Positions 17,130-63,980 of a DNA stretch of 64,000 bases are shown piece after piece. Source of the DNA: Anaerolineae bacterium (lineage in GTDB: Bacteria > Chloroflexota > Anaerolineae > J102). The notes beneath the pieces are model-generated. The model ran no database searches and was not told where the DNA came from. It was given only the letters and a program-made list of their open reading frames with translations. The translations under genes were made by a program, and so were the position numbers. The stretch covers positions 5,147 through 69,146 of the forward strand of contig JALXCB010000046.1 in the NCBI GenBank assembly GCA_026991225.1, written 5' to 3'. The stretch's first letter is position 1. Each line of letters starts with the position of its first letter.

Positions 17130-17263
17130 GGGAGGATTGGGATTGGGATTGGAAGATTCGTCTTTTGTGACACGGATGGAAGGAACACGGATGACATTCG
17201 ATTGATGCTATCATTAAGCCATTTTCCCATCCGTGTTTTCTTTTATCCGTGTTGCATGACCTT

Positions 17264-18334
17264 TTACAGCAATTTTGCGGCGTCCAGGGCGAAGTAGGTG
17301 AGGATGAGATCAGCGCCCGCGCGTTTGATGGCGAGCAGGCTCTCCAGCATGACGCGGGTCCCGTCGATCCAGCCGTTGGCGGCCGCGGCCTTGATCATGG
17401 CGTATTCGCCCGAGACCTGGTATGCGGCCAGGGGGAGCTTCACCTGCTCCTTGAGCTGCGCCAGGATGTCCAGGTAGAAGCTGGCGGGCTTGACCATGAT
17501 GATGTCCGCGCCTTCGGCGATGTCGATCTGCACCTCGCGCAGGGCCTCGCGGGCGTTGGCCGGGTCCATCTGATACTGGCTGCGGTCGCCGAATGCGGGC
17601 GGGCTTTCGGCCGCGTCGCGGAAGGGACCGTAGAGGGCGCTGGCGTACTTGGCCGCATAGCTCATGATGGGGATGTGTTCGAACCCGGCGTCATCCAGGC
17701 CCGAGCGGATAGCGCCCACCATACCGTCCATCATGCCGCTGGGCGCGACCATGTCCGCGCCGGCGCGAGCGTGGGTCACCGCGGCCCGGCTGATGTAATC
17801 CAGGGTGGGGTCGTTGAGGACGTAGCCCGTGGGGAGATTGGGGTTGTACGCGGGCTCGTCGGGCGTGTTGATGATCCCGCAATGCCCGTGATTGGTGTAT
17901 TCACACATGCAGATGTCGCTGACCACGACCAGGCCGGGCAGCGCCCGCTTCAAGGCCCGAATGGCTTCAGGGATGATGCCGTGAGGATCGTCATTTTCGC
18001 TGCCGTAGGGGTCCTTGTGTTCGGGAATGCCGAAGAGGATGACCGAGCGCACACCCAGACTCCACGCCCGCTCCGCTTCCTCGATCATCGTGTCGATGGA
18101 GAGCTGGAACTGGCCGGGCATGGAGGGAATGGGGTGACGAACGCCCTCGCCGTGGCGCACGAACAGGGGGTAGATGAAATCCTCGGGATGGAGATGGGTT
18201 TCCTGCACCATTTGCCGCAGCGCGGGGGAAAGGCGCAGGCGGCGAGGGCGGGCCAGGAGGGAGCGATGGCCGTTGCCGGGCCTCGATGACGTCACAGCTG
18301 TGGGCAGGATGGTGGGGAAAGAAGTTGCGCTCAT
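17264..18334 (-). CDS. hemB: Porphobilinogen synthase (delta-aminolevulinate dehydratase)
   Basis: Start taken at [10 protein letters not shown]... (ATG 18332-18334). ALAD family motifs. Overlaps the hemD stop region. Confidence 0.9.
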
Positions 18335-18372
18335 GATAAAAGTCCTTATGAGAGGAAACGAAAGATCGAAGA

Positions 18373-19158
18373 CTAAAGACTGACCGCCGGCTCTCCGAAC
18401 CAATCTCTCAATGCTGCGACCAGTCCTGGCGTGGTGTATTCTTCGGGCATGATGTCCACAGTCAGGCCCGCTTGCCGGGCTGCGTCCGCGGTGACGGGCC
18501 CGATGCAGGCGATGACCGCCCCGGCCAGGGCCTCTACGCCCAGGCCCGCCTCTCGCTCCAGGCGAATGAGGGTGTTGCGTACAGTGGAGGGACTGGTGAA
18601 TGTGATGGCGTCCACCAGTCCCGAGTGCAGAGCCGCGGGCAGATCCTCGCCCCCGCTCCCCAGCACGGTCTCATAGGCTGTGACCACGTCCACCCGCACA
18701 CCCCGGGCCCGCAGGCCGTCGGGCAGCACGTCCCGAGCCTGGGCGGCCCGCGGGAGCAGCACCCGCTGGCCCGCGGGAATGGGCAGCGCGGCCAGCAGAC
18801 TCTCCCCCACCGCTTTGGGCGGGATCAGGTCCACGTCCAGCCCCAGACGACGTTCGACGGCCCAGGCGGTGGCCGGGCCCACCGCGGCGATGTTCGGGCC
18901 GTGCAGCGCGTTTGGGGGCAATCCCAGCGCATCCAGGCGTCGGGCCACGGCCTCCACCGCATTGGCGCTGGTGAAGAGGAACCAGTCGTAGTCGCGGGCG
19001 TGGCGCAGGGCCACGTCCAGCGGGCCGGCGTCCGCGGGCGGTTGGATGGCGATGGCGGGATAAAGCAGGGTGCGGAAGCCTGCGGCCTCCAGCAGGGCCT
19101 TCAGTTCGTCCGCCTGGTGCGCGGTTCGGGTGATGACGATGGTGGGAGAAAAAGTCAT
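18373..19158 (-). CDS. hemD: Uroporphyrinogen-III synthase
   Basis: About 262 aa from the ATG at 19156-19158 ([28 protein letters not shown]...). HemD-like two-domain pattern. The listed longer ORF has an N-terminal extension without an SD. Confidence 0.7.
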
Positions 19159-19237
19159 GGTGAATGGTGAGAGATGATTTGACGGTCTCATGTCCATTAT
19201 GTTAGGATCAATGCAATCATTGTTCAGGAGATGCGCT

Positions 19238-19474
19238 ATGGCAGTTGAAGTCAAAACCGTCGAGATCCGAGACGCCAAAAAAGAGTTCCAGCGATGGCTC
19301 GCACTGGCGCAACAGGGCGTCGAGGTCATTGTCACCGATGAAGGCGAACCATTGGCTCGCATCTCAGCGGTTCGACCAAACGAGGGCCGCGTCGCTGGAC
19401 TGAACCGAGGTGAAATCAAAGCTGCCGAAGATTTCGATGAGCCGCTGCCAGAGTCCTATTGGATCGGGGAGTAA
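19238..19474 (+). CDS. Type II antitoxin (Phd/YefM/VapB-like)
   Basis: About 79 aa. MAVEVKTVEIRDAKKEFQRWLALAQQGVEVIVTDEGEPLARI... Stop TAA overlaps the ATG of the downstream PIN gene (GAGTAAATG). Confidence 0.6.
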   Translation: MAVEVKTVEIRDAKKEFQRWLALAQQGVEVIVTDEGEPLARISAVRPNEGRVAGLNRGEIKAAEDFDEPLPESYWIGE

Positions 19475-19876
19475 ATGCGCCTTCTGCTCGACACACACAT
19501 TTTTATCTGGTGGGCGGATGAGCCAGAACGTCTTGATGGACGGCTGCTCGACGCTCTGCTGAACGCTGAAAATGAATTGATTTTGAGTGTTGTCAGTCTT
19601 TGGGAAATGCAGATCAAAGCGCAATTGGGGAAATTAACGTTCCAAAGGCCGTTGAAGGAGCTCGTTCATTTACAACAAAGCGTCAACGGGTTGCAACTGC
19701 TTCCTGTAACGTCAAATCACGTGTTTTTGCTGGATGAACTGCCACTCATTCACAAGGATCCATTTGATCGGTTGATCATCGCTCAGGCGTTGGCGGAGAA
19801 TCTGATCCTCGTGAGTCACGATAGAGTATTCGAGGACTATCAGGTCCTCCTGTGGAAGCCCGATATGCAGGGATAA
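19475..19876 (+). CDS. vapC: PIN-domain ribonuclease toxin (VapC family)
   Basis: 133 aa. MRLLLDTHIFIWW...DPFDRLIIAQA...LVSHD carries PIN-domain acidic residues. Confidence 0.8.
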   Translation: MRLLLDTHIFIWWADEPERLDGRLLDALLNAENELILSVVSLWEMQIKAQLGKLTFQRPLKELVHLQQSVNGLQLLPVTSNHVFLLDELPLIHKDPFDRLIIAQALAENLILVSHDRVFEDYQVLLWKPDMQG

Positions 19877-19878
19877 AG

Positions 19879-20790
19879 TTAATCGGAAGTCGATAAGATT
19901 TCGACAGCGCCCTGGACAAGCGCCTCTTCCGCCAGGGCCCGGCCCAGCGCCAGGGGATCGTCGCCCGTCGCCTCCACGCGTAGCGTGCGGCGGCCATCGG
20001 GCGAGGCCACCAGCCCGGTGAGATGCAGGCCGGCATCGACAGGATGGGCGTATGCGGCCACGGGAATGGCGCAGCCGCCGCCCAATCCCGCCAGAAAGGC
20101 CCGCTCGGCCTGTGCGGCCGCCCGCGCGGCGGGATCTTCCACCGCGGCCAGCAGAGCCAGGGTGCGTTCATCGTCCGCCCGGCACTGCACGCCCAACACG
20201 CCCTGCCCCGGCGCAGGCAGCATGACGTCCAGGGGCAGATACTGCGTCACCGCGTCTTCCAGGCCCAACCGGGTGACCCCGGCCGCGGCCAGCACAATGG
20301 CGTCGTACTGGCCCTCCCGAGCCTTGCGGATGCGGGTGTCCACATTGCCGCGGATGGGTTTGACCGCCAGGTCGGGGCGATAGGCCAGCAGTTGGGCCTG
20401 ACGCCGGGGGCTGGAGGTGCCCACCACCGCGCCCGCGGGCAATGCATCCAGCGTGCGTCCCGCAGGGCAGATGAGCGCGTCTCGGGCGTCGGCCCGCGGG
20501 GGCGTGAGACCGATGGTGAGGCCGGGCGCATCCTCCACCGGCAGGTCTTTCAGGGAATGGACGGCCGCGTCCACCCGGCCCTCCCGCAAAGCCCGCTCCA
20601 GCTCTGCGGTGAAGAGCCCCTTGCCGCCGATGAGGGGCAGGGGCTTGTCCAGAATCCGGTCGCCTTGGGTGACGATGACCTGGATGTCGATGGTCAGGCC
20701 GGGATGCGCCGCCCGCAGCAGATCCGCGACGTAGTCGGTCTGCCAGCGGGCCAGTGCGGAGGGGCGGGTGGCGAAGGTGAGAGTGGGCAT
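19879..20790 (-). CDS. hemC: Hydroxymethylbilane synthase (porphobilinogen deaminase)
   Basis: Start at MPTLTFATRPSALARWQT... (ATG 20788-20790). ...GNVDTRIRK...QGVLGVQCRADDERTL... HemC motifs. Confidence 0.9.
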   Translation of the reverse strand: MPTLTFATRPSALARWQTDYVADLLRAAHPGLTIDIQVIVTQGDRILDKPLPLIGGKGLFTAELERALREGRVDAAVHSLKDLPVEDAPGLTIGLTPPRADARDALICPAGRTLDALPAGAVVGTSSPRRQAQLLAYRPDLAVKPIRGNVDTRIRKAREGQYDAIVLAAAGVTRLGLEDAVTQYLPLDVMLPAPGQGVLGVQCRADDERTLALLAAVEDPAARAAAQAERAFLAGLGGGCAIPVAAYAHPVDAGLHLTGLVASPDGRRTLRVEATGDDPLALGRALAEEALVQGAVEILSTSD

Positions 20791-20831
20791 GAGAGTGGAG
20801 ATTGGGATCAGGATAGGATGAGGGAACGTAG

Positions 20832-20972
20832 CCAGGTTGGCGCGGGAAGCCACTCCCGTAATGCGTGATGCGTAAGGAGCTCACGGATTACGCATTACGC
20901 ATCACGTCGGTTGCAGACTCGCCCACCGTGGGCTTCGAGTCATTTTTGCAAACCAACGCTATTTTCGGAGCA
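20832..20972 (-). repeat. Family A copy A2 (inverted orientation)
   Basis: Same modules in reverse complement. Its terminal CCGAAAATAGCGTTGG module supplies the hemA stop codon. Confidence 0.8.
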
Positions 20973-22224
20973 GATAGTCTTCCAGGGCGAAGAGGTCCTG
21001 AATGGCGCGGGCGTAGGGTTCGGCGTTGCCGCGGGCGGCCTGGGCCTTAAGCTGCAAGGTGGGTTCATGCAGGAGTTTGTTGACCAGCCGATGGGCGAGG
21101 CGGGTCATCTGATCGGCGACGATGGTATCATCGTGCGGAAGCTTGCGCAAGGCTTGTTCCAGCTCGGCCCGGGCCAGATCGTTGGCCTTGCGGCGCATGC
21201 CCACCAGCACCGGCAGCACTTGGCGGCTTCCCAGCCAGGCCATATAGCCATCCGCCGCCTCGGCGACCATGACTTCCACCTGAGGAATAGCGGCCTGCCG
21301 CTCCTCCAGGTTGTGCTGCACGATCTCCTGAATGTCATCCAGCACAAAAAGCTCCACGTGGGGAAGGCTCGCGACCGCGGGATCGATGGCGCGCGGCACG
21401 GAAAGATCCACCAGGATGAGAGGACGGGCCCGGCGGGGCGTCATGGCGGGCGTGATCAGGAAGCCGTCGCCCCCCGCGGCCACGATCACGGCGTCGGCCC
21501 AGCTCAGGCCATCTGGCAGTTGGCTGAGGGGGTGGGCAGTCGCCTGGACGCGGTCAGCCAGGGCCTGCGCCCGGGCCAGAGTGCGGTTGTAGATGCGGAT
21601 GCGGGCGTCGCTGAGCCCGGCCGCGTGCTTGGCCACCAGCGACCCCATCTCCCCCGCGCCCACGATGGCCAGACGCTTGCTCTGACTCAAGGCCGCATGA
21701 CCATCCACCCAGCGCATGACCACCGACCCGATGGAGACGGCGTTGCGGCTGATGGGGGTTTCGGTGCGGGCCCGCTTCCCCGTCTGAATGGCCGTGCGGA
21801 AGAGCTCGGCCAGTTGCGGGCCGATGGCGTGCACTTCCAGCCCCATCTCATAGGCATCCCGCACCTGGCCCAAAATCTGTGGTTCGCCCAGCACCATGGA
21901 ATCGAGCCCGCAGGCGACGCGGACCAGATGGTCGACGGCATCCCGCCCCTGCCAGACATACAGATAGCGTTGCAACTGGCTGGCGGAGAATCCCGTTCGG
22001 GCCTGGAAGAAGTCGCGGAGGAGGCCCATAGCCGCAGACGCGTCCGAGGCCGCCAGATACCACTCCGTACGATTGCAGGTGGAGAGGACGGCGGCCTCAT
22101 CGATGCTGGGGTGGGCCGTAAGTTGGATCAGGGCCTCTCGGGCAGCCTCGCCTTCGATGGCGAAGGCCTCGCGATGGGCCAGCGGCGTGGTGCGGTGGTT
22201 CAAGCCAAGGCAAAGGATCGTCAT
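20959..22224 (-). CDS. hemA: Glutamyl-tRNA reductase
   Basis: Start at MTILCLGLNHRTTPLAHREAFA... ...LSTCNRTEWY... catalytic Cys motif. NADPH-binding GAGEMG. Stop codon lies in the terminal module of an A-family repeat. Confidence 0.9.
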   Translation of the reverse strand: MTILCLGLNHRTTPLAHREAFAIEGEAAREALIQLTAHPSIDEAAVLSTCNRTEWYLAASDASAAMGLLRDFFQARTGFSASQLQRYLYVWQGRDAVDHLVRVACGLDSMVLGEPQILGQVRDAYEMGLEVHAIGPQLAELFRTAIQTGKRARTETPISRNAVSIGSVVMRWVDGHAALSQSKRLAIVGAGEMGSLVAKHAAGLSDARIRIYNRTLARAQALADRVQATAHPLSQLPDGLSWADAVIVAAGGDGFLITPAMTPRRARPLILVDLSVPRAIDPAVASLPHVELFVLDDIQEIVQHNLEERQAAIPQVEVMVAEAADGYMAWLGSRQVLPVLVGMRRKANDLARAELEQALRKLPHDDTIVADQMTRLAHRLVNKLLHEPTLQLKAQAARGNAEPYARAIQDLFALEDYLLRK

Positions 22225-22413
22225 AATCGACGCAGAAATCAGGAAGGGCGGTTCGGAATAGAAGTTAAGCAAACCTCATAATTTCTAAGTAAACCTTATC
22301 ACAGATTGCAATCGACGACCAAAAAATGTCTTCTCCAAAACCCCGAGAAAACAAAGAATGCGATGAATCCTACATTAAAAGTGGCTAAAAACCGAGGTGA
22401 AACACGCGCTCAA

Positions 22414-22441
22414 AGAAAAAGCCCGCCGAAAATCGGCGGGT
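22414..22441 (-). terminator. Rho-independent terminator downstream of the N-formylglutamate amidohydrolase gene
   Basis: Minus strand reads ACCCGCCGATTTTCGGCGGGC followed by TTTTTC. Confidence 0.6.
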
Positions 22442-22464
22442 GCTGAAGGAATGTGAGATTGGAA

Positions 22465-23349
22465 TCAAGAAGCACGGGACGCTTCTGCTGCCTCCTCCAA
22501 TCGCCAGTACAGGGCCTGGATGGCTTCCCAGACGGCCTCGCGCAGGGCTTCGATTTGTTCCATGTTGGGGGGCTGCGCGGGCGTGTCCTCATCCTGCCGC
22601 CCGACATACATGGCCCGGCTGACTTCGATCATGGCCCAGGGCTGCTGGCTCTCCATGCCATGCGCCTTCAGGTCCCAGCCGCCCCAATAGGGGCTGTTGA
22701 GCGCGACCGGGCCCGGCTCCGCCACCTCGCACAGCGAAGGGATGCGGTTCAGCCGCCGCCCCACTTCCTGCCCGAAGAATTGCAGATGGTCGGCGGGCAT
22801 GGTGGTGCGGGGGTAGCCGTTGCGCAGGTGGCCGCGGGCGTCGCCCAGGTTGGAGACGCAGCCGCGGGGGCGGATTTGTTGCGCCGGGTCGTATTTGCGG
22901 GGCCCGCGCGCGGCCATGCTGTGGGCGTCGATGACCAGCTTCACCTCCGGGTCGCGGGCGATGGCGGCCAGTTGTTCGTGCCAGGGATGCCAGTAGCGAT
23001 GCACCAGCTCCCGCTCTTCCGCCAAATCGGGATGCTGGCCGGGCTTGAAGATGGTCTGGCCGTAGCTGGTGACGTCTTTAATGACGCCATCGCCGATGCG
23101 CTTGAGCTGGCCGGGATCGTCGGGGCGATTGACGTCGATGAGGGCGCGGGCGTAGGGAAAGCGCACCCAGTGACGCACGCGGTCGCGGAAGTCGAAAATC
23201 AGGTCGGTGTAGACATCCGCTTCGTTGAAGATGTGATCTTCCCCGATGGCCAGCCGCCCCTCGAATTCGGGCGGGACAGCCAGCCCGGCGTGGGGAAGGA
23301 TGATGGCGATGGGGAGTTTGTCGTCTTGAATCGTCCGTGTTGCGCTCAT
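22465..23349 (-). CDS. N-formylglutamate amidohydrolase family protein (FGase)
   Basis: About 295 aa from the ATG at 23347-23349. ...PIAIILPHAGLAVPPEF...VIDAHSM... FGase-type motifs. Confidence 0.65.
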   Translation of the reverse strand: MSATRTIQDDKLPIAIILPHAGLAVPPEFEGRLAIGEDHIFNEADVYTDLIFDFRDRVRHWVRFPYARALIDVNRPDDPGQLKRIGDGVIKDVTSYGQTIFKPGQHPDLAEERELVHRYWHPWHEQLAAIARDPEVKLVIDAHSMAARGPRKYDPAQQIRPRGCVSNLGDARGHLRNGYPRTTMPADHLQFFGQEVGRRLNRIPSLCEVAEPGPVALNSPYWGGWDLKAHGMESQQPWAMIEVSRAMYVGRQDEDTPAQPPNMEQIEALREAVWEAIQALYWRLEEAAEASRAS

Positions 23350-23547
23350 GGTTCCATGCGACGCAAGGGGTGGGATATGAGAAAAGGTGCGACTTGACCG
23401 AAATGAGCTGGCATTCCGATAGGTCGCACCTGTTTTGTATACGAACAATCGAAGCCAATTGTTCCTCAACGTTCTTTTCAGGCGACACGGGCAGCAACCC
23501 GCCGTTACGGATGAAAACGCCCCGCGGCCGGGGCCGTGCAGGAAGCC

Positions 23548-23650
23548 AAGCACGTAATGCGTGATGCGTAACGATCTCACGTTTCACGTTTTCACGCATC
23601 ACGCCCGTTGCAGACTCGCCCAACCTTGGCTTTGCGAACCTTCAGCAACC
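23548..23650 (-). repeat. Family A copy A3 (inverted)
   Basis: GTAATGCGTGATGCGTAACGATCTCACG...CGCATCACGCCCGTTGCAGACTCGCCCAACCTTGG. Confidence 0.7.
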
Positions 23651-23666
23651 AGCGATCATTCGATTT

Positions 23667-24854
23667 TCATAGCAGCTCGATGGCCATAGCCACGGCCTCG
23701 CCGCCGCCCAGACAGAGCGCGGCCACGCCCCGCCGCCCGCCCGTCTGGCGCAGGGCGTAGATCAGGGTGGTGAGGACGCGGGCGCCGCTGGCTCCCAAAG
23801 GATGCCCCAGGGCGATGGCCCCGCCGTGGATATTGACCTTCTCCGGGTCTAGCCCCAGTTCGATGATGTTTTGCAGGGATTGGGCGGCGAAGGCTTCGTT
23901 CAGCTCGAACAGATCGACGTCGGCCAGGCTCCAGCCGATGCGGTCCATGAGGCGGCGGATGGCGTGGGGGGGCGCGGTGAAGACTTTGAGGGGCTCGACC
24001 GCGGCGTGGGTGTAGCCGATGATGCGGGCCAGGGGCGTCAGGCCATGGGCTTGAGCGTACTCGGGATGGGCGATAACCGTGGCGGCTGCGCCGTCGCTGA
24101 TAGGCGGCGCATTGCCCGCGGTGACCGTGCCCCCTTCCTCGAACGCGGGCCGCAGTCGAGCCAGGGCCTCCAGGCTCGTGTCCGGGCGGATGGGCTCATC
24201 CCGATCCACGACCACCTCCTTGCGCTTCTGTTTCACCGTGATGGGAACCATCTCATCTTTGAACAGCCCCTCCTCGGTGGCCCGAACCGCGCGCATGTGG
24301 CTCTGATAGGCGAACTGGTCCTGCATCTCGCGAGTGATGTTGAAAGTGCGGGCGATCCATTCCGCCTCGTTGCCCATGTGCAAGCCGTTGAAAGGATCGA
24401 TGAGGCCGTCATGCACGGTAGCGTCCAGCACCTCGCCATTGCCCAGGCGGTAGCCGAAGCGGGCTTTGGGCAGCATGTAGGGCCCCATGCTCATGGCCTC
24501 CATTCCCCCTGCCACATAGAGCCGACCATCGCCGGCGCGGATGGCGCTGGCCGCGAACATGACCGCGCGCAGGCCCGAACCGCACACCTTGTTCAGGGTG
24601 ACCGCGCCCACGCTCTCGGGCAGGCCGCCGAAGACGGCCGCCTGGCGGGCCGGGGCCTGGCCCGTGCCCGCGGGGATGACCTGCCCCATGAACACTTCCT
24701 CGACCTCGGCGGGATCAATGCCCGACCGTTCCACCACCGCCCGGATGACGTGCGCGCCCAGTTTGGGCGCAGGGATGTTGCTGAGCGCACCGCCCAACCG
24801 GCCGCCGGGCGTGCGGGCTGCGGCAAGGATGACAGGATAAATCGGTTGGTTCAT
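23667..24854 (-). CDS. Acetyl-CoA C-acetyltransferase (thiolase II)
   Basis: Start at [18 protein letters not shown]... Thiolase active-site regions (...NKVCGSGL..., ...[12 protein letters not shown]..., C-terminal ...[13 protein letters not shown]). Confidence 0.85.
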
Positions 24855-24867
24855 GACAAGGCTCCTG

Positions 24868-25065
24868 TTCCGAAAATAGCGTTGCATTGGTTTACAAAAA
24901 TAACTCGAAGCCCCCGTTGGGCGGGTCTGCTACAGACGTGATGCGTAATCCGTAATCCGTGAGGTCATTACGCATCACCCATTACGCATTACGTAGCTGG
25001 CTTCCCGCGCCGCCCTGGCCGCGGGGCGTTTTCATCGGTATCGGCAAACGTCGCTCGCGGCGCAT
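24868..25065 (+). repeat. Family A copy A4 (fills the whole thiolase-to-pdp spacer)
   Basis: All three modules present. Confidence 0.8.
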
Positions 25066-25070
25066 GAAAT

Positions 25071-26378
25071 TCATTCAATCGTCTTTTTAATCAACGCGGG
25101 CGGCGTCACGGGTTCATCGCTCCAGGCGTAGGCGGTCAGAAGCTCTTCGGCCGCGGCCCGGGCCTCGGCTTCGGTGCGGGCGTGGATGTCGCAGAGGACG
25201 TCGCCCGCATCCACCCGGTCGCCGATCTTCGCCCGCAGGACGACGCCCACGCGATGGTCGATGAGATCGCCCTTCTTCTCGCGGCCGCCGCCCAGCTTCA
25301 CCGTGACTTCGCCGAATGTGCGAGCGCGCACCTGGCTGAGATAGCCCGATTGAGGGGACGTCAGGGGCAGGACCACGGGCGCGGCGGCCAGGATGGCGTC
25401 GGGATCGTCGGCCACGCGAGGATCGCCGCCCTGATAGGCCACGAACATTTGGAATTTGCGCAACGCCCGGCCGCTGGCCAGGGCCTCTTCCACGCGGGAT
25501 CGCCCCTCCTCCACGCTGTCCACTCGCCCGCACATCTGCAATAGATGCGCGGCCTCGGTGAGGATGAGTTCGGTGAAATCGGCCGGGCCTTCGCCCTTGA
25601 GGGTGGCGATCGCCTCCTTCACCTCCAGCGCATTGCCCACGGCCAGGCCCAAAGGCTGATTCATGTCGGTGACCCGGGCCGCGACCTTGCGCCCGGACAG
25701 CTTGCCGATGGCGACCATAAGCCGGGCCAGCTCCACCGCGTCCTCCAGTATCTCCATGAACGCGCCATTGCCGGTTTTTACGTCAAGCAAAATCACGTCC
25801 GCGCCCGCGGCCAGCTTCTTCGACATGATGGAGGAGGCGATGAGGGCCATGCTGGGCACGGTCGCGGTCACATCGCGCAGTGCGTAAAGCTTCTTGTCCG
25901 CGGGAGCCAGTTCCGCGGTCTGCCCGGCCACGACGATGCCGATGTCGGCCAGTTGCTTCTTGAATTCCTCAATGGTCAGCTCCGCCCGCCAGCCGGGGAT
26001 GGATTCCAGCTTGTCCAGGGTGCCGCCCGAGAAGCCCAGTCCCCGGCCCGACATCTTGCCGATGGGCTGGCCCGCGGCCGCGACGATGGGCGCCAGGGCC
26101 AGGGTCACCTTGTCGCCCACGCCGCCGGTGGAATGCTTGTCCGCCACGGGCCTGACCACGTCGCTCAGGTCGAGGGTCTCGCCCGAATGGGCCATGCTCA
26201 GGGTGAGGTCGGTGACCTCGCGGTCGGTCATACCTCGTAACAGCACGGCCATGGCCCAGGCCGCGGCCTGGTAGTCGGGAATCTCGCCCCGCGTGTACCC
26301 CTGGATGAAGAAATCGATCTCCTCGGTGGTCAATTCCAGACCGTCTCGTTTTTTGGCGATGATATCGACAGCGCGCAT
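25071..26378 (-). CDS. pdp: Pyrimidine-nucleoside (thymidine) phosphorylase
   Basis: About 435 aa from the ATG at 26376-26378. ...[20 protein letters not shown]... and ...[13 protein letters not shown]... glycosyltransferase-family-3 motifs. Confidence 0.85.
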
Positions 26379-26404
26379 GGGAACTCCTGCTATGAAAATA
26401 GATT

Positions 26405-26562
26405 TGGAGGACGCAGATAACGCAGATTGAAACGGATGAACGCAGATGATAAAGAAAAAATCTGCGAAAATCATCTGCGAAAATCTGCATTGCGAAGCAT
26501 CCGTGTCATCTGCGCTCTCATTTTCATTGGTATTGGCGCGGGCTTGCCCGCCATCGGACTGC
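26405..26562. repeat. Family D copy D3
   Basis: GACGCAGATAACGCAGATTGAAACGGATGAACGCAGATGATAAAGAAAAAATCTGCGAAAATCATCTGCGAAAATCTGCATTGCGAAGCATCCGTGTCATCTGCGC. Confidence 0.75.
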
Positions 26563-26574
26563 TATAAAAATTGA

Positions 26575-26740
26575 TTTGGCAGACCGGGAAACCGGTAGAC
26601 CGGTAGACCAGTAAACCGGGTGGGGGAGCGAATCGGCCCGGTTTCCCTGGTTTCCTGGTTTACCGGGTTACGGGACTACGGGGCTACGCACCCCGCCATT
26701 TTCGTCCGTGTCGGCGAGCTTGCGCTTGGGCCGCCTGCGT
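26575..26740. repeat. Family B copy B2
   Basis: GACCGGGAAACCGGTAGACCGGTAGACCAGTAAACCGGG...CCCGGTTTCCCTGGTTTCCTGGTTTACCGGG + ACGCACCCCGCCATTTTCGTCC tail. Confidence 0.8.
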
Positions 26741-26900
26741 TGAAAATAACGTTGCGTTGGTTTGCAAAAAAGACTTGAAGCCCACGTTGGGCGAGCCTGC
26801 CACGGGCGTGATTCGTGAAGACGTGAAACGTGAGGGCTTTACGCATCACGCATCACGGTTCACGAATTCGGCTCCCCGCGCCAACGTGGCCGTTAACGTT
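26741..26900 (+). repeat. Family A copy A5
   Basis: GTTGAAAATAACGTTGCGTTGG...CCCACGTTGGGCGAGCCTGCCACGGGCGTGATTCGTGAAGACGTGAAACGTGAGG... Confidence 0.75.
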
Positions 26901-27027
26901 TTATTGCGTATTTGTCGCTCAAGTATACTGCAACCCGAGAGAAATCATAAAAACCGCGCCGCGCTTCAAGCGCAGACTTCGATTTGTAGATTCCCTCACA
27001 TTTGCATACAATAGGCGTCAATTCTCG

Positions 27028-27200
27028 TAACTACTAAGGTGTCGCCGCCACTTTTTGCCACGAAGACACGAAGAAAAGCGAAGGCGCGACGTATTTTTCT
27101 TTATTTTTCCTTCGTGTCTTCGAAAAACTTCGAGCCTTCGTGGCAAGACGTTTTCAGCGCCGAATCAGGCTGCCTGAGCAGTTACGCCGCCACCTTCCTC
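27028..27200 (+). repeat. Family C element, copy C1
   Basis: GTAACTACTAAGGTGTCGCCGCCACTTTTTGCCACGAAGACACGAAGAAAAGCGAAGGCGCGACGTATTTTTCTTTATTTTTCCTTCGTGTCTTCGAAAAACTTCGAGCCTTCGTGGC... is an imperfect long palindrome. Confidence 0.8.
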
Positions 27201-27224
27201 GCTCACAATCTTATAAGGTGACCC

Positions 27225-28769
27225 ATGCAGGATCATCTCGACAAACTCCGACAGCTCAAAGAAGAAGCGATGCAGGGGGGAGGAGAAGCCCGCATCGCCA
27301 GGCAGCACGCCGCGGGCAAGCTCACCGCGCGGGAGCGCATCCAGTTGCTGGTGGACGCGGGGAGTTTTCAGGAGTTGGGGATGTTCGTCAAGCACCAGAT
27401 CGGCGATTTCGGCATGGATCAGAAGCGCTATCCGGGAGATGGCGTGGTGACGGGCTTCGGGACCATCGACGGGCGTCAGGCCGCGGTCTACGCCCAGGAT
27501 TTCACCGTGCTGGGCGGGACGTTTTCGGAGATGCACGCCCGCAAGATCGTGGCCCTGCAGGACCTGGCTCTGGAAGCGGGCGTCCCCATCATCGGGTTGA
27601 TGGATTCGGGCGGGGCCCGCATTCAGGAGGGGATTCGCGGGCTGGCGGGCTATGGCGACATGTTCACACGCAACGTGCTCTCCTCGGGCGTCATCCCCCA
27701 GCTCTCGGTGATGATGGGCCCCTCGGCCGGGGGCTCCGTCTACGCACCGGCCCTGACCGACTTCGTGATCATGGTCAAAGACACCAGCTACATGTTCCTG
27801 ACCGGGCCCGACGTGGTGCAGGCTGTGACGGGCGAGACGGTCACCCCCGAGGAGCTGGGCGGGGCCATGGTGCACAATGTGCGCAGCGGGGTGGCTCATC
27901 TTTTGGCCGAAGATGAAGCGCACGCGTTGCGGATGGTGCGCCTGATCCTCAGCTATCTGCCCCAAAACAACACCGAGGACCCGCCCCACGCCCCCACCAA
28001 CGACCCGCCCGACCGTCAGGAGGAATCCCTGGCGCGCATCGTGCCCGCGGCTGAGGACCAGCCCTACGACGTGAAGGAGGTCATCCAGGCCGTGGTCGAT
28101 CTGGGCAGCTTCTTCGAGGTGCAGCCCTACTTCGCCCGTAACGCCGTGGTGGGCTTCGCCCGCATGGACGGGCATGTGGTCGGCATCGTCGCCAACCAGC
28201 CCTCCTTCCTGGCGGGCGTGCTAGACATCGACGCCAGCGATAAAATCGCACACTTCGTGCGGGTGTGCGACGCCTTCAACATCCCCATCCTCACCTTCGT
28301 GGACACGCCCGGATTCCTGCCCGGCGTCAACCAGGAGCACTACGGCGTCATCCGCCACGGGGCCAAGATCATCTACGCGTATGTCGAGGCCACCGTGCCC
28401 AAGATTTCCGTCATTCTACGCAAGGCCATGGGCGGCGCTTACATCGCCATGAGTTCCCGACGCATGCGCAGCGACCTGGCCCTGGCCTGGCCCACAGCCC
28501 AAGTCGCGGTCATGGGCGCGGAAGGCGCGGTGCGCATCCTCCATCGCAAGGACCTGGCGAAAGCGGAAGACCCGGCCCAACTGGAGGCCGAATTCGTGCA
28601 GGCGTATCGGGACGCCTTTTTCAACCCTTACATCGCCGCGGAGCTAGGCTTCATCGATGACGTCATCGACCCGCGCGAGACCCGGCCCAAGTTGATCAAG
28701 GCCCTGGCCTTTCTGCGCACGAAGGTGCAGCAAAACCCGCCCAAAAAGCATGGGTTGATGCCGGTATGA
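27225..28769 (+). CDS. Acyl-CoA carboxyltransferase subunit (methylmalonyl-CoA decarboxylase alpha / propionyl-CoA carboxylase beta-like)
   Basis: 514 aa. Carboxyltransferase N and C domains (...DGRQAAVYAQDFTVLGGTF..., ...PILTFVDTPGFLPG...). First gene of the decarboxylase operon. Confidence 0.85.
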   Translation: MQDHLDKLRQLKEEAMQGGGEARIARQHAAGKLTARERIQLLVDAGSFQELGMFVKHQIGDFGMDQKRYPGDGVVTGFGTIDGRQAAVYAQDFTVLGGTFSEMHARKIVALQDLALEAGVPIIGLMDSGGARIQEGIRGLAGYGDMFTRNVLSSGVIPQLSVMMGPSAGGSVYAPALTDFVIMVKDTSYMFLTGPDVVQAVTGETVTPEELGGAMVHNVRSGVAHLLAEDEAHALRMVRLILSYLPQNNTEDPPHAPTNDPPDRQEESLARIVPAAEDQPYDVKEVIQAVVDLGSFFEVQPYFARNAVVGFARMDGHVVGIVANQPSFLAGVLDIDASDKIAHFVRVCDAFNIPILTFVDTPGFLPGVNQEHYGVIRHGAKIIYAYVEATVPKISVILRKAMGGAYIAMSSRRMRSDLALAWPTAQVAVMGAEGAVRILHRKDLAKAEDPAQLEAEFVQAYRDAFFNPYIAAELGFIDDVIDPRETRPKLIKALAFLRTKVQQNPPKKHGLMPV

Positions 28770-29119
28770 TCGAAAATCTCCAGTTTGGCGCCCTGCTGAT
28801 GGTCGTGGGCATGACCATGGTGTTCATCATTCTGGCCATGCTTTGGGGGCTCATCGCCCTGTTCCAGCAGATCGACCGTCGCATGTTCGCCCGGGAGGAG
28901 GCCCGGAGGGCCCCCAAAACCGAGGAGCCGTCCCCCGAGCTGCTGGCGGCCATCGTCGTGGCCGTGCACCGCTATCGTCTGGAGGCCGCTCAGCCCGAGA
29001 GGGCGGGCCCGCGCGTGCCCAAACGCCTGAAGCCCTCCCAGGCGCGTTGGGTGGCCGTAGGACGGGCGTATCAGCTGCGGCAAAACCTCCCGCCGCGAGG
29101 GACAAGTGGCAGGAAGTGA
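28766..29119 (+). CDS. OadG-like small membrane subunit of Na+-translocating decarboxylase
   Basis: ATGA overlap with the upstream gene. MIENLQFGALLMVVGMTMVFIILAMLWGLIALF... single TM helix typical of OadG/MmdD. Confidence 0.6.
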   Translation: MIENLQFGALLMVVGMTMVFIILAMLWGLIALFQQIDRRMFAREEARRAPKTEEPSPELLAAIVVAVHRYRLEAAQPERAGPRVPKRLKPSQARWVAVGRAYQLRQNLPPRGTSGRK

Positions 29120-29171
29120 TCCATGATCTGTCCAACCGCGAATGCTTCCTCATCGAGATGGATGAAAATGG

Positions 29172-29262
29172 CAACCGGTAGACCGGAAAACCAGTAGACC
29201 GGGAAACCATGCGTAGACCGGCTATGCCAGGTCTACTGGTCTCCTGGTTTCCTGGGTTATCA
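29172..29262. repeat. Family B copy B3 (inside the decarboxylase operon gap)
   Basis: CCGGTAGACCGGAAAACCAGTAGACCGGGAAACC...GGTCTACTGGTCTCCTGGTTTCCTGGG. Confidence 0.75.
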
Positions 29263-29280
29263 AGAGCGTCTCCCTAAACT

Positions 29281-29335
29281 AAACGCATTTGGAAATCAGG
29301 TGTTTTCGGCCTCGGCCACCCGGAGCTGAAGCTCC
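29281..29335. repeat. Family F element, copy F1
   Basis: AAACGCATTTGGAAATCAGGTGTTTTCGGCCTCGGCCACCCGGAGCTGA. Confidence 0.65.
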
Positions 29336-29555
29336 GGGCTACGAAACGACGCCGGGTGAACCCGGCTTCCTGCGGCGAGCGACCTGCGCCATAGCCCCAT
29401 TGATGGGGCGTCGTTTTTAGCCCGCAGGTGAACCTGCGGGCGGCGGCGCGGCCAGAGAATCGCCTTTCACTGATGATCCAATGCGAACCAAAAGCCTTGG
29501 TTTCAATTTGCTTTCAGTTTAATTGCTGACTTTGACTCTTTCACCGTGAGCCCTT

Positions 29556-42984: not shown

Positions 42985-43160
42985 TTTCCTTGTAAGATGT
43001 AACTGCTAACGTACTGGACTTTAGGCCGCCAAAAGCCACGAAGGCTCGAAGTTTTTCGAAGATACGAAGGAAACATAAAGAAAAATACGTCGTGCCTTCG
43101 CTTTTCTTCGTGTCTTCGTGGCAAAAAGTGGCGGCGACACCTTAGTAGTTACTGTAAGAT
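42985..43160 (-). repeat. Family C copy C2 (inverted; abuts the BNR gene start)
   Basis: Reverse complement of C1 with more than 85% identity. Confidence 0.8.
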
Positions 43161-44249: not shown

Positions 44250-44440
44250 CGCGTTCGTCTACAAAAGCTACTCGAAACCCACATTGGGCGAGGCTGCAAT
44301 GGGCGTAAAACGTCAAACGTGAAACGTCATGTCCTCACGCATCACGTTTCACTTGTCACGTCATCGGCTTCCCGAGCCGCTCTGGCCACAAGGCTTTTTT
44401 ATTCGTATCGGTGATCTCTCGCTCGCGTAGCCCGGTTTCG
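44250..44440 (+). repeat. Family A copy A6
   Basis: ...CCCACATTGGGCGAGGCTGCAATGGGCGTAAAACGTCAAACGTGAAACGTCATG...GGCTTCCCGAGCCGCTCTGGCCACA...TTATTCGTATCGGTG. Confidence 0.75.
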
Positions 44441-48454: not shown

Positions 48455-48612
48455 ATGTAACTGCCTAAGGTCGCGCCGCCGCTTTTTGCCACGAAGATAC
48501 GAAGAAAACGAAGGCACAACGTATTTTTTATTTTATCCCTTCGTGTCTTCGAAAAACTTCGAGCCTTCGTGGCTTTTGGCGGCCTAAAGTCCAGTACGTT
48601 AGCAGTTACGAA
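48455..48612 (+). repeat. Family C copy C3
   Basis: TAAGGTCGCGCCGCCGCTTTTTGCCACGAAGATACGAAGAAAACGAAGGCACAACG...CGAGCCTTCGTGGCTTTTGGCGGCCTAAAG. Confidence 0.8.
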
Positions 48613-58489: not shown

Positions 58490-58590
58490 CCTCCCCTGAG
58501 CGTAGCTTGGGGGAGCCGGAGGGGGTCGAGCCTTCGTGGCAAGGCGTTTTCGAGGTCGAATCAGGTTACCTGAGCAGTTACAGAGAAATG
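58490..58590 (+). repeat. Family C partial copy C4
   Basis: ...GTCGAGCCTTCGTGGCAAGGCGTTTTCGAGGTCGAATCAGGTTACCTGAGCAGTTAC matches the 3' half of C1. Confidence 0.6.
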
Positions 58591-60080: not shown

Positions 60081-61928
60081 TCACTCCACCGTCACGCTCT
60101 TGGCCAGATTGCGGGGCTGGTCCACGTCCGCACCCCGCCACACCGCGATGTGATAGGCGAAAAGCTGGAGAGGAACCACGGTGAGGATGGGCAGCAACCA
60201 GGGCGACGCCTCGGGCACGACGATGAGGTCATCGGCCTTCTCGGCGATGACGCGGTCGCCCGGATTCACCATAGCGATGACTTTGCCCCGCCGGGCCTTC
60301 ACCTGCTCCACCTGACTCACCATCTTCTCGTAAACGCCATCGCGCGGGGCCAGCGCCACAGTGGGCATGGTCTCGTCGATGAGGGCGATGGGCCCGTGCT
60401 TCATCTCCCCCGCGGGATACCCCTCCGCATGGATATAGCTGATCTCCTTCAACTTCAGCGCCCCCTCCAGGGCGATGGGATATTGCAATCCCCGGCCCAG
60501 ATAGAGGAAATCCTCGTAGTTGGCGTAGGCAATGCCCAACTTACGGATTTCCTCATCCCTGGCCAGCACGTCTCCCAGCTTTTGCGGCAGCAACGCCAGC
60601 TCGTGCGCCAGCGCCAGCGACGCGTCCTGGTCCAGCAGGCCCCGCTGTTGGGCCAGGAACATGGCCAGGAGGAGCTGGTCTACCACGGACGAGGTGAACG
60701 CTTTGGTGCTGGCCACGCCGATCTCGGGCCCGGCCTGCATGTAGATGACGCCATCGGCCACGCGCGCGGCCTGCGACCCCACCGCGTTGACGATGGAGAG
60801 CAGGAACGCGCGCTGGCGGCGGGCCTCCTCCATCGCGGCCAGGGTGTCCACCGTCTCGCCCGACTGGGTGATGGCGATGAACAGGGTGCGGTCGTCCAAG
60901 ATGGGCTCCCGATAGCGGTATTCGGAGCCGTAATCCACCTCCACGGGCAGGCGGGCCAGGCGTTCGATATAGAACTTGCCCATCAGGCCCGAGTAGTAGG
61001 ACGTGCCGCAGGCCACGATGGTCACCCGGTCGATGCGTTGGACGATCTCGGGCGTGAGGTTGGCTCCGGGCAGGGTGACCTCGCCCGTGACGAAGTCGAT
61101 GCGCCCGCGGATCGTATCGGTGAGCGCGTTGGGCTGGTCGAAGATCTCCTTTTGCATGAAGTGGCGGTAGGGCCCTTTGGCCGCGGACACCGGGTCCCAG
61201 GGGATGGCGATGATCTCCTTGCCGGGGATGGGCTCGCCCTCCAGCGTACTGAAGGCCGCGCCCTCGCGGGTGACCACAGCCATCTCCCGATTTTCGAGGA
61301 AGGACATGCGCCGGGTGTGTTCGAGGATAGCAGGGATATCGGAGGCCAGGAACATTTCGTCCTCGCCGTGCCCCACGACCACCGCGCCCGCGTTACCCAG
61401 GCGGGCGGCGATGAGCCGGTCGGGCTCGTAGGTGCTGAGAACGACCACCGCGGACGGGCCATGCAACAGGCTTAGCGCCCGCCTCACCGCCTCTTCCAGG
61501 TCCTCGGTCTGGGTGAATTCCCGGTGGATGAGCTGGACGATGACCTCGGTGTCGGTGTCCGAGGCGAATTCGTATCCCTGGCTCATCAACTCCTCTCGCA
61601 GGGGCAGGAAGTTCTCCACGATGCCGTTCTGCACCACGACGATGCGCCCGTCTTTGGCCCGGTGGGGATGGGCGTTGTAGGCGGTGGGCGGGCCGTGGGT
61701 GGCCCATCGCGTGTGTCCGATGCCGATATGCCCGTTGGTGGGCGCTTCGGCCACGCGCTGACGCAGGTTGCTGAGCTTGCCCGCGTCCCGGCGGATCTCG
61801 ATCTCGTTCCGGTTGTTGATGATGGCCAGGCCCGCGGAATCGTACCCGCGGTATTCCAGCCGTTGTAAGCCTTCGAGGATGATGGGGGTGGCCTCTCTCG
61901 GTCCGATATAACCAACAATGCCGCACAT
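60081..61928 (-). CDS. glmS: Glutamine--fructose-6-phosphate aminotransferase (isomerising)
   Basis: Start at MCGIVGYIG (N-terminal Cys nucleophile). Two SIS domains. C-terminal ...KSVTVE. Confidence 0.92.
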   Translation of the reverse strand: MCGIVGYIGPREATPIILEGLQRLEYRGYDSAGLAIINNRNEIEIRRDAGKLSNLRQRVAEAPTNGHIGIGHTRWATHGPPTAYNAHPHRAKDGRIVVVQNGIVENFLPLREELMSQGYEFASDTDTEVIVQLIHREFTQTEDLEEAVRRALSLLHGPSAVVVLSTYEPDRLIAARLGNAGAVVVGHGEDEMFLASDIPAILEHTRRMSFLENREMAVVTREGAAFSTLEGEPIPGKEIIAIPWDPVSAAKGPYRHFMQKEIFDQPNALTDTIRGRIDFVTGEVTLPGANLTPEIVQRIDRVTIVACGTSYYSGLMGKFYIERLARLPVEVDYGSEYRYREPILDDRTLFIAITQSGETVDTLAAMEEARRQRAFLLSIVNAVGSQAARVADGVIYMQAGPEIGVASTKAFTSSVVDQLLLAMFLAQQRGLLDQDASLALAHELALLPQKLGDVLARDEEIRKLGIAYANYEDFLYLGRGLQYPIALEGALKLKEISYIHAEGYPAGEMKHGPIALIDETMPTVALAPRDGVYEKMVSQVEQVKARRGKVIAMVNPGDRVIAEKADDLIVVPEASPWLLPILTVVPLQLFAYHIAVWRGADVDQPRNLAKSVTVE

Positions 61929-61944
61929 GGAAGTGGCTCCTTGT

Positions 61945-62075
61945 TCGGAAAACAGTGTGATTTGCAAACGCTCGCCAGCCCAACGTTGGGCGAGGCGACA
62001 ACGGGCGTCAAACATCAAACATCATGCGTCATGTCCTGACGTTTGACGAAGTCGGTTTGCCGCGCGAACGCGGGG
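61945..62075 (+). repeat. Family A copy A7 (inside the glmS leader, between ribozyme and start codon)
   Basis: GCTCGCCAGCCCAACGTTGGGCGAGGCGACAACGGGCGTCAAACATCAAACATCATGCGTCATGTCCTGACGTTTGACGAAGTCGG. Confidence 0.75.
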
Positions 62076-62104
62076 AAACGCCCGTGCAGGCGCGACCGGG
62101 GTCC

Positions 62105-62335
62105 TGGATCTTGACTTCTGCCACTGCCCCTTCCCTTGTCCCGCGGTCGCCCGTGGGCTTTCGGGTGAGACTTTGCGCGTTCCCATGACGTCCGGTGGTG
62201 GCTGCACCGGGAAGGCATCCGCCGATCTCTCGATTTTCCCACTGGCCCGAGCCAGGGTTAGGCCGCCCTTGCGGACGACAACCTTCTCCTCGTCAACTGC
62301 GCCGCCCCTTGCGGGCGCAGTCCAGGCGCTGCGTC
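62105..62335 (-). ncRNA. glmS ribozyme (GlcN6P-responsive self-cleaving riboswitch) in the glmS 5' leader
   Basis: The minus strand reads AGCGCCUGGACUGCGCC...GACGAGGAGAAGGUUGUCG...CGGCGGAUGCCUUCCCGGUGCAGCC... These align with the B. subtilis glmS ribozyme core (AGCGCCAGAACU..., CACGAGGAGGAGGUUAUCG, CGGCGGAUGCCUCCCGGCUG). The 3' boundary is approximate. Confidence 0.7.
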
Positions 62336-62679
62336 ATGGTGGTTGGGAACGTAGGTTACATGTTCGGGTCAGGCCATAAACAAGCCTCCATTCAGTAGTG
62401 AAGAGTAAAGATTAGCATCTTATCAGTGACATTTTAGCCCGCTGAGCTAAAAGTTACACAGAGCTCACAGAGCTGCTTTGGAGCTTCACAGAGATTCATT
62501 GATTATTTTTTCTCTGTGTAACTCTGTGTTCCTTCCTGGTTCCAGCCTGTCCGGGTTAGGATTGAGGATAGGAGGATTATAGAGGAAGGACGGGGGATTG
62601 GCAAACCGCATCGCGTCCGTATGACAGGCTATTGGCCTGGTAGGCCGAGAACGGGGCAGTGAGCGCCCCCAGCTCCGGT

Positions 62680-62725
62680 TTCCCGGTCTACCGGTCTTCG
62701 GGTTTCCTGGTTTCCCCATCCTGTT
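62680..62725. repeat. Family B partial copy B5 (overlaps the histidine kinase C-terminus)
   Basis: CCGGTTTCCCGGTCTACCGGTCTTCGGGTTTCCTGGTTTCCCC. Confidence 0.6.
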
Positions 62726-63980
62726 TTCCAGGCAACGTGAACCAGAAGCGCGCGCCCTGGCCCGGTTCACTCGCCACGCCGATCTCGCCGCCGTGGGCCT
62801 CGACGATGCGTTTGGCGATGGCCAGGCCCAGGCCCGACCCGCCCGTGGCGTGGCTACGCGACTTCTCGCCCCGATAGAACTGGTCGAAAATGTAGGGGAG
62901 GTCGTCGGCCGCGATGCCCTCGCCCGTATCGATAACCTCCACCAGCGTGACTGACCCCTGCCGTCGGGCCTGCACCCGCATGTCGCCGCCCGTGGGCGTG
63001 TGACGGATTGCGTTGGCGATGAGATTCGCCAGCACCCGCTCGATCTTCTGTACATCCACCCGCACCAGGTCGGGACCAGCCGCCGAGTGGCCCGAAAGCG
63101 CCACGCCCTGGCGCGCAGCCGCCTCCGCGAAGCGGTTAACCGTGTCCGAAATGAGGTCGTTCAGATCCACCGGCTGCAAACTCAGCTCCAGCGCGCCCGC
63201 GTCGAACTGGGCCAGGTCGAAGAGATCGTCGATGAGCAGGGAGAGGGATTGGATATCCCGCTGGGCTGTGCGCAGATAGCGCTGCTGCATAGCCGGTTCC
63301 TCCACCAGGCCGTCGGCCAGGGCTTCAATCAGGGCCTGGATGGAGGCCAGGGGTGTGCGCAGGTCGTGGCCCGCCCAGGCGATGAGATTGCGCCGCATTT
63401 GGTCTAACTCCCGCTGCTTGCGGTCGGCTTCTTGCAGGCGCTGGGCCATGAGATTGAAAGTGCGGGCCAGCTCCGTCACCTCGTTGGAGCCCCGCTCCGG
63501 CGCCCGCACGTCGTAACGTCCGCGGGCGATGGCTCGGGCCGCGTCGTTCAGCTCCCGAATGTAATCGGCCACTGCGGTGGCGAAGAAATATCCCAGCGAC
63601 ATGGCAATGCCCCCGGCGAAGATGAGCAGCACCGTGGCCAGAAGCAAATCGTGTGCGCTGGCGAACATGAGCCGGGCCGTGAGCCACACGTTGAGAAAGG
63701 TGAGGATGCTGGCCAGGGCGTAGCCGCCCATGAGCAGCCAGCTAATGTGCGGGGCCTTCTGGGCCAGGCCCGTGCGGTAGGCCACATACCCGGCCAGGAT
63801 GGAGATGCCCGCGGTGATGCTCAGGAACAGCGCCATGGCCCGAAAATCGGCCACGGGCGGCTGCATGAGGAGCCAAAACAGCCCCAGGGCGATGATCATC
63901 GTCAGGATCACGCCCGCGATGAAGCGCAGGGTCAGGGAGGTCGAACGGGTGTGGGTGGAGGTAGTGAGGGTAGAGTGCAT
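62688..63980 (-). CDS. Sensor histidine kinase (2 TM + HAMP + HisKA + HATPase_c)
   Basis: 430 aa. ...[14 protein letters not shown]... H-box. ...[19 protein letters not shown]... G2 box. The C-terminal ~13 codons overlap a B-family repeat half-site. Confidence 0.85.

Follow-up and report, generated by a model that had tools for sequence, protein, structure and literature searches.

A complete, probably active glmS ribozyme of Chloroflexota-typical architecture, flanked by intergenic repeats, in the glmS leader of an Anaerolineae bacterium

The glmS leader of an Anaerolineae bacterium was analysed within a stretch of 64,000 nucleotides (nt) of contig JALXCB010000046.1; this whole stretch is referred to as the window, and all coordinates are based on it. 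The glmS gene, coding for glutamine--fructose-6-phosphate aminotransferase, occupies positions 60081-61928 of the minus strand, and its product of 615 amino acids was assigned as GlmS because it starts with MCGIVGY and comprises a glutamine amidotransferase domain (GATase_6/7) and two SIS domains. It is 88% identical to the GlmS of L001, an Anaerolineae metagenome-assembled genome (MAG), and 58-65% identical to that of many other Anaerolineae and Chloroflexota MAGs. A Shine-Dalgarno sequence, AAGGAG, was read from the sequence at 61937-61942 (minus strand), 8 nt before the ATG. Directly upstream and in sense orientation lies a glmS ribozyme, whose cleavage site is separated from the GlmS ATG by 402 nt on the minus strand, and the space from the ribozyme to the Shine-Dalgarno sequence holds a copy of a repeat, termed A-family. 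About 38 Chloroflexota glmS loci, labelled L001 and so on, were compared, as were Acidobacteriota loci.

An Rfam scan of the whole 64-kb window revealed a match to RF00234, the glmS ribozyme family, at 62341-62165 (minus strand), with a score of 41.3 bits compared to a gathering score of 37 and E=2.9e-6 (E=5e-8 when the search space was the 1.1-kb locus); no other Rfam match in the window exceeded its gathering score. In the relatives, the core motifs AGCGC[C/A], GACGAGG and C[G/A]GCGGAUGCC are present upstream of glmS in 31 of the approximately 38 Chloroflexota loci, and those relatives that are detected by the Rfam model score 39-72 bits; the motifs were not found upstream of glmS in the Acidobacteriota loci compared. 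With the family score above the gathering score, both pseudoknots able to form and the element kept upstream of glmS in relatives, the proposal of a glmS ribozyme at this site, made in an earlier note on this DNA, is borne out. All of the strings quoted there were recovered from the minus-strand leader at the place named, reading ...CCAUGACGCA|GCGCCUGGACUGCGCC...GACGAGGAGAAGG...CGGCGGAUGCCUUCCCGGUGCAGCC..., and AGCGCC, GACGAGGA and CGGCGGAUGCC were aligned to RF00234 at a posterior probability near 1. Its label for the P2.1 region has to be amended: CGGCGGAUGCC provides the 3' strands of P2.2 (GGCG) and P2, and P2.1 itself is formed by CGA (within GACGAGG) pairing with UCG (within AAAAUCG). 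The element is a further member of a known RNA class in another genome, with membership evident from sequence and structure, covariation and genomic context.

The pairing scheme for the window ribozyme was taken from PMC7125110, where P2.2 joins C2-C5 to G53-G56, P2.1 joins residues 28-30 to 43-45, and position 6 is bulged. With the helices written onto the window sequence, the ribozyme body covers 62120-62328 and the complete ribozyme 62339-62120 (minus strand, as for all its parts), extending past the Rfam match. The cleavage-site strand AGCGCCU is located at 62330-62324, and the Rfam alignment of AGCGCC predicts the cut to lie between A(-1) at 62330 and G(+1) at 62329. P2.2 consists of CGCC at 62328-62325 and GGCG at 62223-62220; P1 of 62321-62314 and 62303-62296 (8/8 pairs); P2.1 of 62292-62290, within the GACGAGG core, and 62233-62231; P2 of 62286-62282 and 62215-62211 (5/5 pairs); and P3 of 62210-62205 and 62197-62192 (6/6 pairs). 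All helices can form, the two pseudoknots among them. The P2.1-to-P2.2 loop between UCG and GGCG, AGAGAUC (7 nt), is of the length given by the PMC7125110 numbering. AGCGC, GACGAGG, UCG, GAAA and ACAA are invariant in 24 relatives, and the window retains all of these positions. For the outermost P2.2 pair (5-53), the window, L003, L006 and L019 have C-G, L002 and L022 have U-A, and most Anaerolineae have an A.A mismatch (position 5 versus position 2 of C[G/A]GCGG), a variation fitting the poor conservation of this pair described in PMC7125110. In L022 and L034, the upstream coding region holds decoy AGCGCC/GACGAGG strings.

The Rfam alignment skips the P4 domain, with 16 nt in place of 50. A ribozyme truncated at P4, as this alignment suggests, was rejected, since P3.1, P4 and P4.1 were found by comparison with relatives and the domain is intact. 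The pseudoknot P3.1 pairs GCCAC at 62202-62198 in the P3 loop with GUGGC at 62124-62120 in the 3' tail, P4 pairs 62171-62163 with 62135-62126 (8 bp), and P4.1 pairs 62157-62151 with 62146-62140 (6/7 pairs) around a GCGA loop. P3.1 covaries in relatives (UGCCAC/GUGGCA, UCCAC/GUGGA, GUCAC/GUGAC, GGCCAA/UUGGCC and others), as do P1, P2, P3 and P4.1, and both P4 and P4.1 are conserved in L001 with compensatory changes. RNAalifold, run on an independent MAFFT alignment of 24 sequences, supports P1, P2, P3 and P4.1 together with two additional hairpins, P2b and P2c. As a side observation, the P3-loop strand of P3.1 (62198-62202) recurs as GCCAC at 61933-61937, in the interval from the Shine-Dalgarno sequence to the AUG, and the P3.1 3' strand (AGUGGC, 62120-62124) could alternatively pair with the initiation region; this pairing is drawn in the minimum free energy (MFE) fold of the whole leader and was not seen by eye in relatives.

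The two additional hairpins make up an insertion specific to the clade (62242-62279), which follows the P2 5' strand and precedes the P2.1 3' strand; here the RF00234 alignment inserts 51 nt where the consensus holds 6. P2b (GUCGUCC-GCAA-GGGCGGC, 62279-62262) is followed by a conserved CUAA that separates it from P2c (62257-62240 including flanking pairs), after which comes a conserved strand (AAAAUCG; GAAAAUCG). The stretch from GACGAGG to CGGCGGAUGCC measures 58-80 nt in the window and most relatives, whereas the canonical form and three short-form relatives (L002, L019 and L033) have approximately 20 nt. Both hairpins were predicted by RNAalifold with many compensatory changes. A covariance model derived from a single sequence, that of the window, and including P2b, P2c and a further helix, P0, matched 32 relatives at 30-95 bits, and in the resulting alignment, fitted to the structure of the model, 96.8% of cells pair versus 44-52% with the partners slid; the values for individual helices are 97.0% for P2b, 95.2% for P2c, 96.4% for P1, 99.4% for P2 and 97.9% for P3. 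Some relatives (L016, L017, L020, L023) carry insertions of 57-180 nt in the P1 loop, partly made of heptamer repeats, and two contigs labelled Oceanobacillus sp. (L011) and Zixiibacteriota (L036) have a Chloroflexota-type GlmS and a long-form ribozyme with P0; they are probably mis-binned MAG contigs.

The marginal Rfam score could be taken as the sign of a former glmS ribozyme that insertions have disrupted and that is now an inactive, decaying relic: 41.3 bits is little above the threshold of 37, the 51-nt insertion is needed, the P4 domain fails to align, and repeats lie on both sides. Yet the score is marginal because of that insertion and the skipped P4 domain, and across the clade both this insertion and the diverged P4 domain recur and covary, with relatives of the same architecture also scoring 39-64 bits with Rfam. 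All invariant core nucleotides and both pseudoknots are intact, and the changes relative to the 88%-identical L001 are compensatory in P4 and P4.1. We consider a relic highly improbable and conclude that the low score reflects clade-typical architecture and not decay. RF00234 under-scores this clade by 20-50 bits because the model contains neither the two-hairpin insertion nor P0.

Compared to the RF00234 prototypes from Bacillus subtilis, B. anthracis and Thermoanaerobacter tengcongensis, the window ribozyme shares the location in the glmS 5' untranslated region, A|GCGCC and the GACGAGG core, P1, P2, the P2.1 and P2.2 pseudoknots, P3 with P3.1, and P4/P4.1 with the GAAA/ACAA internal-loop residues. 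It differs from them by the two hairpins (about 45 nt) in the 4-nt P2-P2.1 linker, by a P4 domain too diverged for Rfam alignment, and by a long, repeat-rich leader with about 190 nt from ribozyme to ATG. It also has P0, whereas in the Rfam consensus the corresponding nucleotides ahead of the cut do not pair and are rich in A/U. The departures from the Firmicutes/Rfam form, namely P2b/P2c, the diverged but intact P3.1/P4/P4.1 and P0, are all common to the relatives.

P0 is a predicted helix of 8 bp, in which the nucleotides immediately preceding the cut (-3 to -10) would pair with the strand that directly follows P3. Its 5' strand, CCAUGACG (62332-62339, positions -10 to -3), is complementary at 8/8 positions to 62190-62183, where the 3' strand, CGUCAUGG (62183-62190), starts one nucleotide after the P3 3' strand; GGUACUGC is a variant of the 5' strand that would break this pairing. 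MFE folding of either the isolated ribozyme or the full 451-nt leader yields the helix, with a duplex energy of -14 kcal/mol in the window, and the pairing recurs with other sequences in relatives (AGGGCAAA/UUUGCCCU, GGGUAAA/UUUACCC, GGAGGCA/UGCCUCC, GGGCUAA/UUAGCCC and others). In a duplex test of positions -15 to -2 against the 44 nt after P3, relative to shuffles of the 5' strand, the mean z was -1.65 in 32 Chloroflexota sequences (30/32 negative; window -3.7). In 26/32 sequences, the 3' strand chosen starts right behind P3, at a distance of 22-27 nt from the P2.2/P2 motif; the nearest pair is at -2 or -3. By comparison, 95 canonical short-form glmS ribozymes from metagenomes gave a mean z of -0.17 with no consistent register, and the difference between the Chloroflexota and these controls after duplicate removal (n=81) was significant (Mann-Whitney p=1.6e-8). 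On the alignment to the single-sequence model, each of the 8 P0 pairs has changed on both of its sides, and pairing is seen in 94.8% of cells, a fraction comparable to P1, P2 and P3. Thus, P0 covaries across 32 relatives, and no consistent P0 signal is found in 95 other glmS ribozymes.

P0 is not tied to the long P2 insertion, since P0-like pairing is also seen in the short forms L102, L019 and L002; in L102, a control from metagenome contig Ga0272441_10015928, it is formed by GGGGAAGAG / UUUUCCCC in the Chloroflexota register. The P0 sequence of the window is unlike the GGGG/CCCC type of the relatives and resembles the heptamer of the neighbouring repeat, which may be chance. The 9-mer CAUGACGCA occurs twice only in the 64-kb window, both times on the minus strand, at 62330-62338 (P0 5' strand plus A(-1)) and at 62025-62033 (A-family repeat of the same leader).

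P0 might serve as one half of a cleavage-triggered switch, in which the 5' leader sequesters the post-P3 strand until, after the cut, that strand blocks the glmS ribosome-binding site or start codon independently of RNase J. Across 32 leaders, the complementarity of the post-P3 strand is indeed greater to its own translation initiation region than to the regions from other species (permutation p=0.0014, mean z -1.08), with L009, L014, L028, L034 and a CCUCCGU/ACGGAGG subclade as striking cases, but this signal may be inflated by kinship within one subclade, and ACGGAGG ribosome-binding sites also occur where the post-P3 strand is without CCUCCGU. In the window, 7 bp (-9.6 kcal/mol) can form between CAUGGGA, located after P3, and UUCCAUG at the start codon, yet the overall complementarity between post-P3 strand and initiation region is no better than that of shuffles (z=-0.24), and many relatives have none. 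Mimicry of the cognate initiation region by the P0 5' strand, when tested directly, was not significant (p=0.08). Such a switch is, in our view, distinctly unlikely. P0 would hold the 5' cleavage fragment and close the whole core.

A helix in this place is unexpected, as the upstream sequence of the ribozyme is regarded as dispensable, and crystallised and minimal glmS constructs largely lack it. In the full-text literature searched, whose coverage did not include McCown et al. 2011 (RNA 17:728), no description of a P0-like or Chloroflexi-specific glmS ribozyme was found. It is conceivable, though we put it forward only tentatively, that the Chloroflexota glmS ribozymes form an undescribed structural subclass, in which a covarying P0 closes the catalytic core and tethers both products, and two extra hairpins stand beside the cofactor-binding P2.1 strand. 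A parallel is offered by the leader-linker 'P0' helix of tandem glycine riboswitches, in which 5' leader nucleotides outside the originally defined motif likewise form a helix (PMC4201829); that RNA belongs to another class, has another fold and is non-catalytic, making it an analogy and not a homologue. Among the by-products of this analysis, P0 and the two-hairpin insertion are the most interesting, with P0 being of modest, clade-specific interest.

Downstream of the ribozyme, the well-aligned part of the A-family repeat covers about 61948-62075 (plus strand, in the orientation of the reference copy at 13118), in agreement with the earlier claim of such a repeat between ribozyme and MCGIVGY start. 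The family is dispersed, with at least seven copies in the window, the others being located at 13118, 24884, 26754 and 44265 (plus strand) and at 20831 and 23480 (minus strand). The glmS copy is the most diverged of the seven; its positions 61980-62041 match 44278-44339 (81% over 62 nt, E=7e-11), and 61972-62008 match 13123-13159 (E=1.6e-6). The copies are intergenic and occur in both orientations relative to the flanking genes. No relevant Rfam match to the repeat was obtained at E<=10 in 61700-62800, nor at E<=1 in 13000-27300, which includes five copies, and blastn gave no match to A-family copies in the loci of 80 relatives. On the mRNA strand, the glmS copy is predicted to fold into three self-contained hairpins (approximately 62096-62059, 62047-62007 and 62006-61964), and in the predicted fold of the whole leader these are separate from the ribozyme, which is undisturbed.

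The repeat fills most of the approximately 190 nt between the ribozyme end (62120) and the ATG. It had been supposed to lengthen the leader to about 400 nt, with possible effects on processing or translation. Cleavage site and ATG are 195-573 nt apart in 31 Chloroflexota relatives (median approximately 349), so that the 402 nt of the window are typical, and 89-425 nt separate the P2.2/P2 strand from the ATG, compared to 285 nt in the window. The idea of an unusually long leader due to the repeat was rejected, as the relatives span the same range. Tandem or inverted heptamer-based repeats are also found in the spacers, and sometimes the P1 loops, of L017, L038, L035, L030, L023 and L016, and the spacer of L001, similar in length, shares just the 20-nt heptamer core UGACGCAUGAYGUUUGAYGU with the window. 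Given the clade-typical leader length, the common occurrence of spacer repeats in relatives and the folding of the repeat on its own, it is read as a tolerated passenger.

Three strong hairpins, one of which has a stem of approximately 16 bp, immediately precede the Shine-Dalgarno sequence, a position that nevertheless allows for the repeat being a working part of the expression platform. It might block exonucleases that degrade the mRNA in the 5'-to-3' direction, terminate part of the transcripts or modulate the access of ribosomes, and the insertion would in that case affect the way in which cleavage leads to less GlmS. A related heptamer hairpin is retained in this position by L001, the closest relative, some other A-family copies have terminator-like hairpins, and a weak terminator-like site is present at 62041-62027 on the mRNA strand. 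However, the U-tracts that make the other copies terminator-like are degenerate in the glmS copy, on the mRNA strand of which no strong terminator was detected; A-family copies lie in unrelated intergenic regions in both orientations relative to flanking genes; no A-family sequence is conserved in the leaders of relatives; and the same spacer of relatives contains unrelated repeats or none, at lengths varying over the 89-425 nt given above. A regulatory role of the repeat thus appears unlikely, and the A-family repeat and a CACAGAG element upstream of the ribozyme are most likely passenger insertions of hairpin-forming intergenic repeats.

This second element is palindromic, low in GC and built from heptamers (CACAGAG x2 ... 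CTCTGTG x3); at 62453-62528 (minus strand), it separates the promoter candidate from the ribozyme. Its CACAGAG/CTCTGTG cluster has no second occurrence in the 64 kb of the window, and its single Rfam match is spurious (E=0.8). The ribozyme thereby appears to have repeat insertions on both flanks. The earlier note mentions neither this second repeat and the distant promoter nor the two-hairpin insertion and P0. The promoter candidate, TTGCCA-17-TATAAT at 62576-62604 (minus strand), is a sigma-70-like prediction with 11/12 matches and the sole site in 61850-62750, and would put the transcription start near 62569; a search for a nearer promoter within 100 nt of the cleavage site yielded none that was convincing by eye or scan. 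Upstream of glmS lies a histidine kinase gene and downstream one for a family-4 glycosyltransferase. Arrays of 8-nt units (GGTAGACC/GGGAAACC) were noted at 784-875, 26578-26688, 29169-29216 and 62664-62727, one of which partly coincides with the 3' end of that kinase gene, shortly before the promoter candidate. In L019, a 6S RNA gene (4881-5058; RF00013, 53.6 bits) directly follows glmS; no 6S RNA was Rfam-detectable in the window.

Intergenic hairpin elements of iterated 7-8-nt units are frequent in the window (421-641, 8541-8901, 14641-16041, 17041-17381, 26261-26661, 26941-27261, 29021-29381 and 62453-62528), each with its own unit (AGGATTG, ATGAATG, AGTAATC, ACACGGA, ATCTGCG, CACGAAG, GGTCTAC and CACAGAG, respectively), and copies of the same repeat family can differ in heptamer yet share flanks. 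A second repeat family, rich in CTTCGTG/CACGAAG, is present at 27027-27144, 43035-43152, 48465-48609 and 58526-58581 and includes an inverted pair of 118 nt, 97% complementary and 15.9 kb apart. The heptamer hairpin elements resemble the cyanobacterial heptamer repeats (short tandemly repeated repetitive sequences, STRR). Like repetitive extragenic palindromic (REP) and miniature inverted-repeat transposable element (MITE)-like elements and STRR, which are short, non-coding and intergenic in both orientations with iterated 7-8-nt inverted units, the A-family shows these features; a sequence relationship is not established, and the heptamer differs among copies of one family. Terminal inverted repeats, target-site duplications and a transposase were not identified for the A-family repeat.

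For the regulation of glmS, the following course is proposed. Upon accumulation, glucosamine-6-phosphate (GlcN6P) would bind as cofactor to the pre-formed double-pseudoknot core (P2.1/P2.2), and the RNA would self-cleave between A62330 and G62329, leaving the downstream glmS mRNA with a 5'-OH end; in the RF00234 family, GlcN6P-dependent cleavage yields 2',3'-cyclic phosphate and 5'-OH ends. By analogy with B. subtilis, this mRNA would be degraded faster, so that less GlmS is made, constituting negative feedback. In B. subtilis, down-regulation of glmS via decay of the 5'-OH product by RNase J1 is established (Collins et al. 2007, as cited in PMC5473149). We infer cleavage, its dependence on GlcN6P, the decay pathway and any role of P0 for the window, with classical GlcN6P-dependent cleavage and mRNA destabilisation being the best-supported reading.

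Taken together, the glmS leader is likely to carry a complete, probably active ribozyme of Chloroflexota-typical architecture, with classical feedback, P0 and passenger repeats. Several points weigh against this interpretation. Self-cleavage and GlcN6P dependence are deduced from homology, the RF00234 score exceeds the threshold by just 4 bits, and P4.1 carries one A-C mismatch. Fitting the alignment used for the pair counts to the structure of the model favours pairing, and an ungapped fixed-register count of P0 pairs, anchored on the P3 end, showed no sharp maximum (0.45-0.58), because P0 offsets and bulges vary between species. The true 5' end of the transcript is uncertain, since the -10 element of the sole good promoter match ends 246 nt before the cleavage site compared to 40-70 nt for the best matches in relatives. 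Finally, decay in the 5'-to-3' direction might be hampered by the stable hairpins of the repeat, which would then be more than a passenger.

The ribozyme as such is ordinary and was correctly recognised, and its description is useful for annotation; the under-scoring of the clade by RF00234 is of comparative value. The locus shows the tolerance of this leader for the hairpin repeats that litter these genomes and suggests that the synthesis of cell-wall precursors is subject to feedback by GlcN6P in this uncultured lineage of Anaerolineae. Should P0 be of consequence, the cleaved mRNA might fare differently than in the Bacillus paradigm, with the 5' product retained, the 5'-OH end protected or religation favoured, and cleavage could in some lineages be coupled to sequestration of the ribosome-binding site. 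P0 offers a simple, testable handle on how cleavage is converted to repression outside the Firmicutes.

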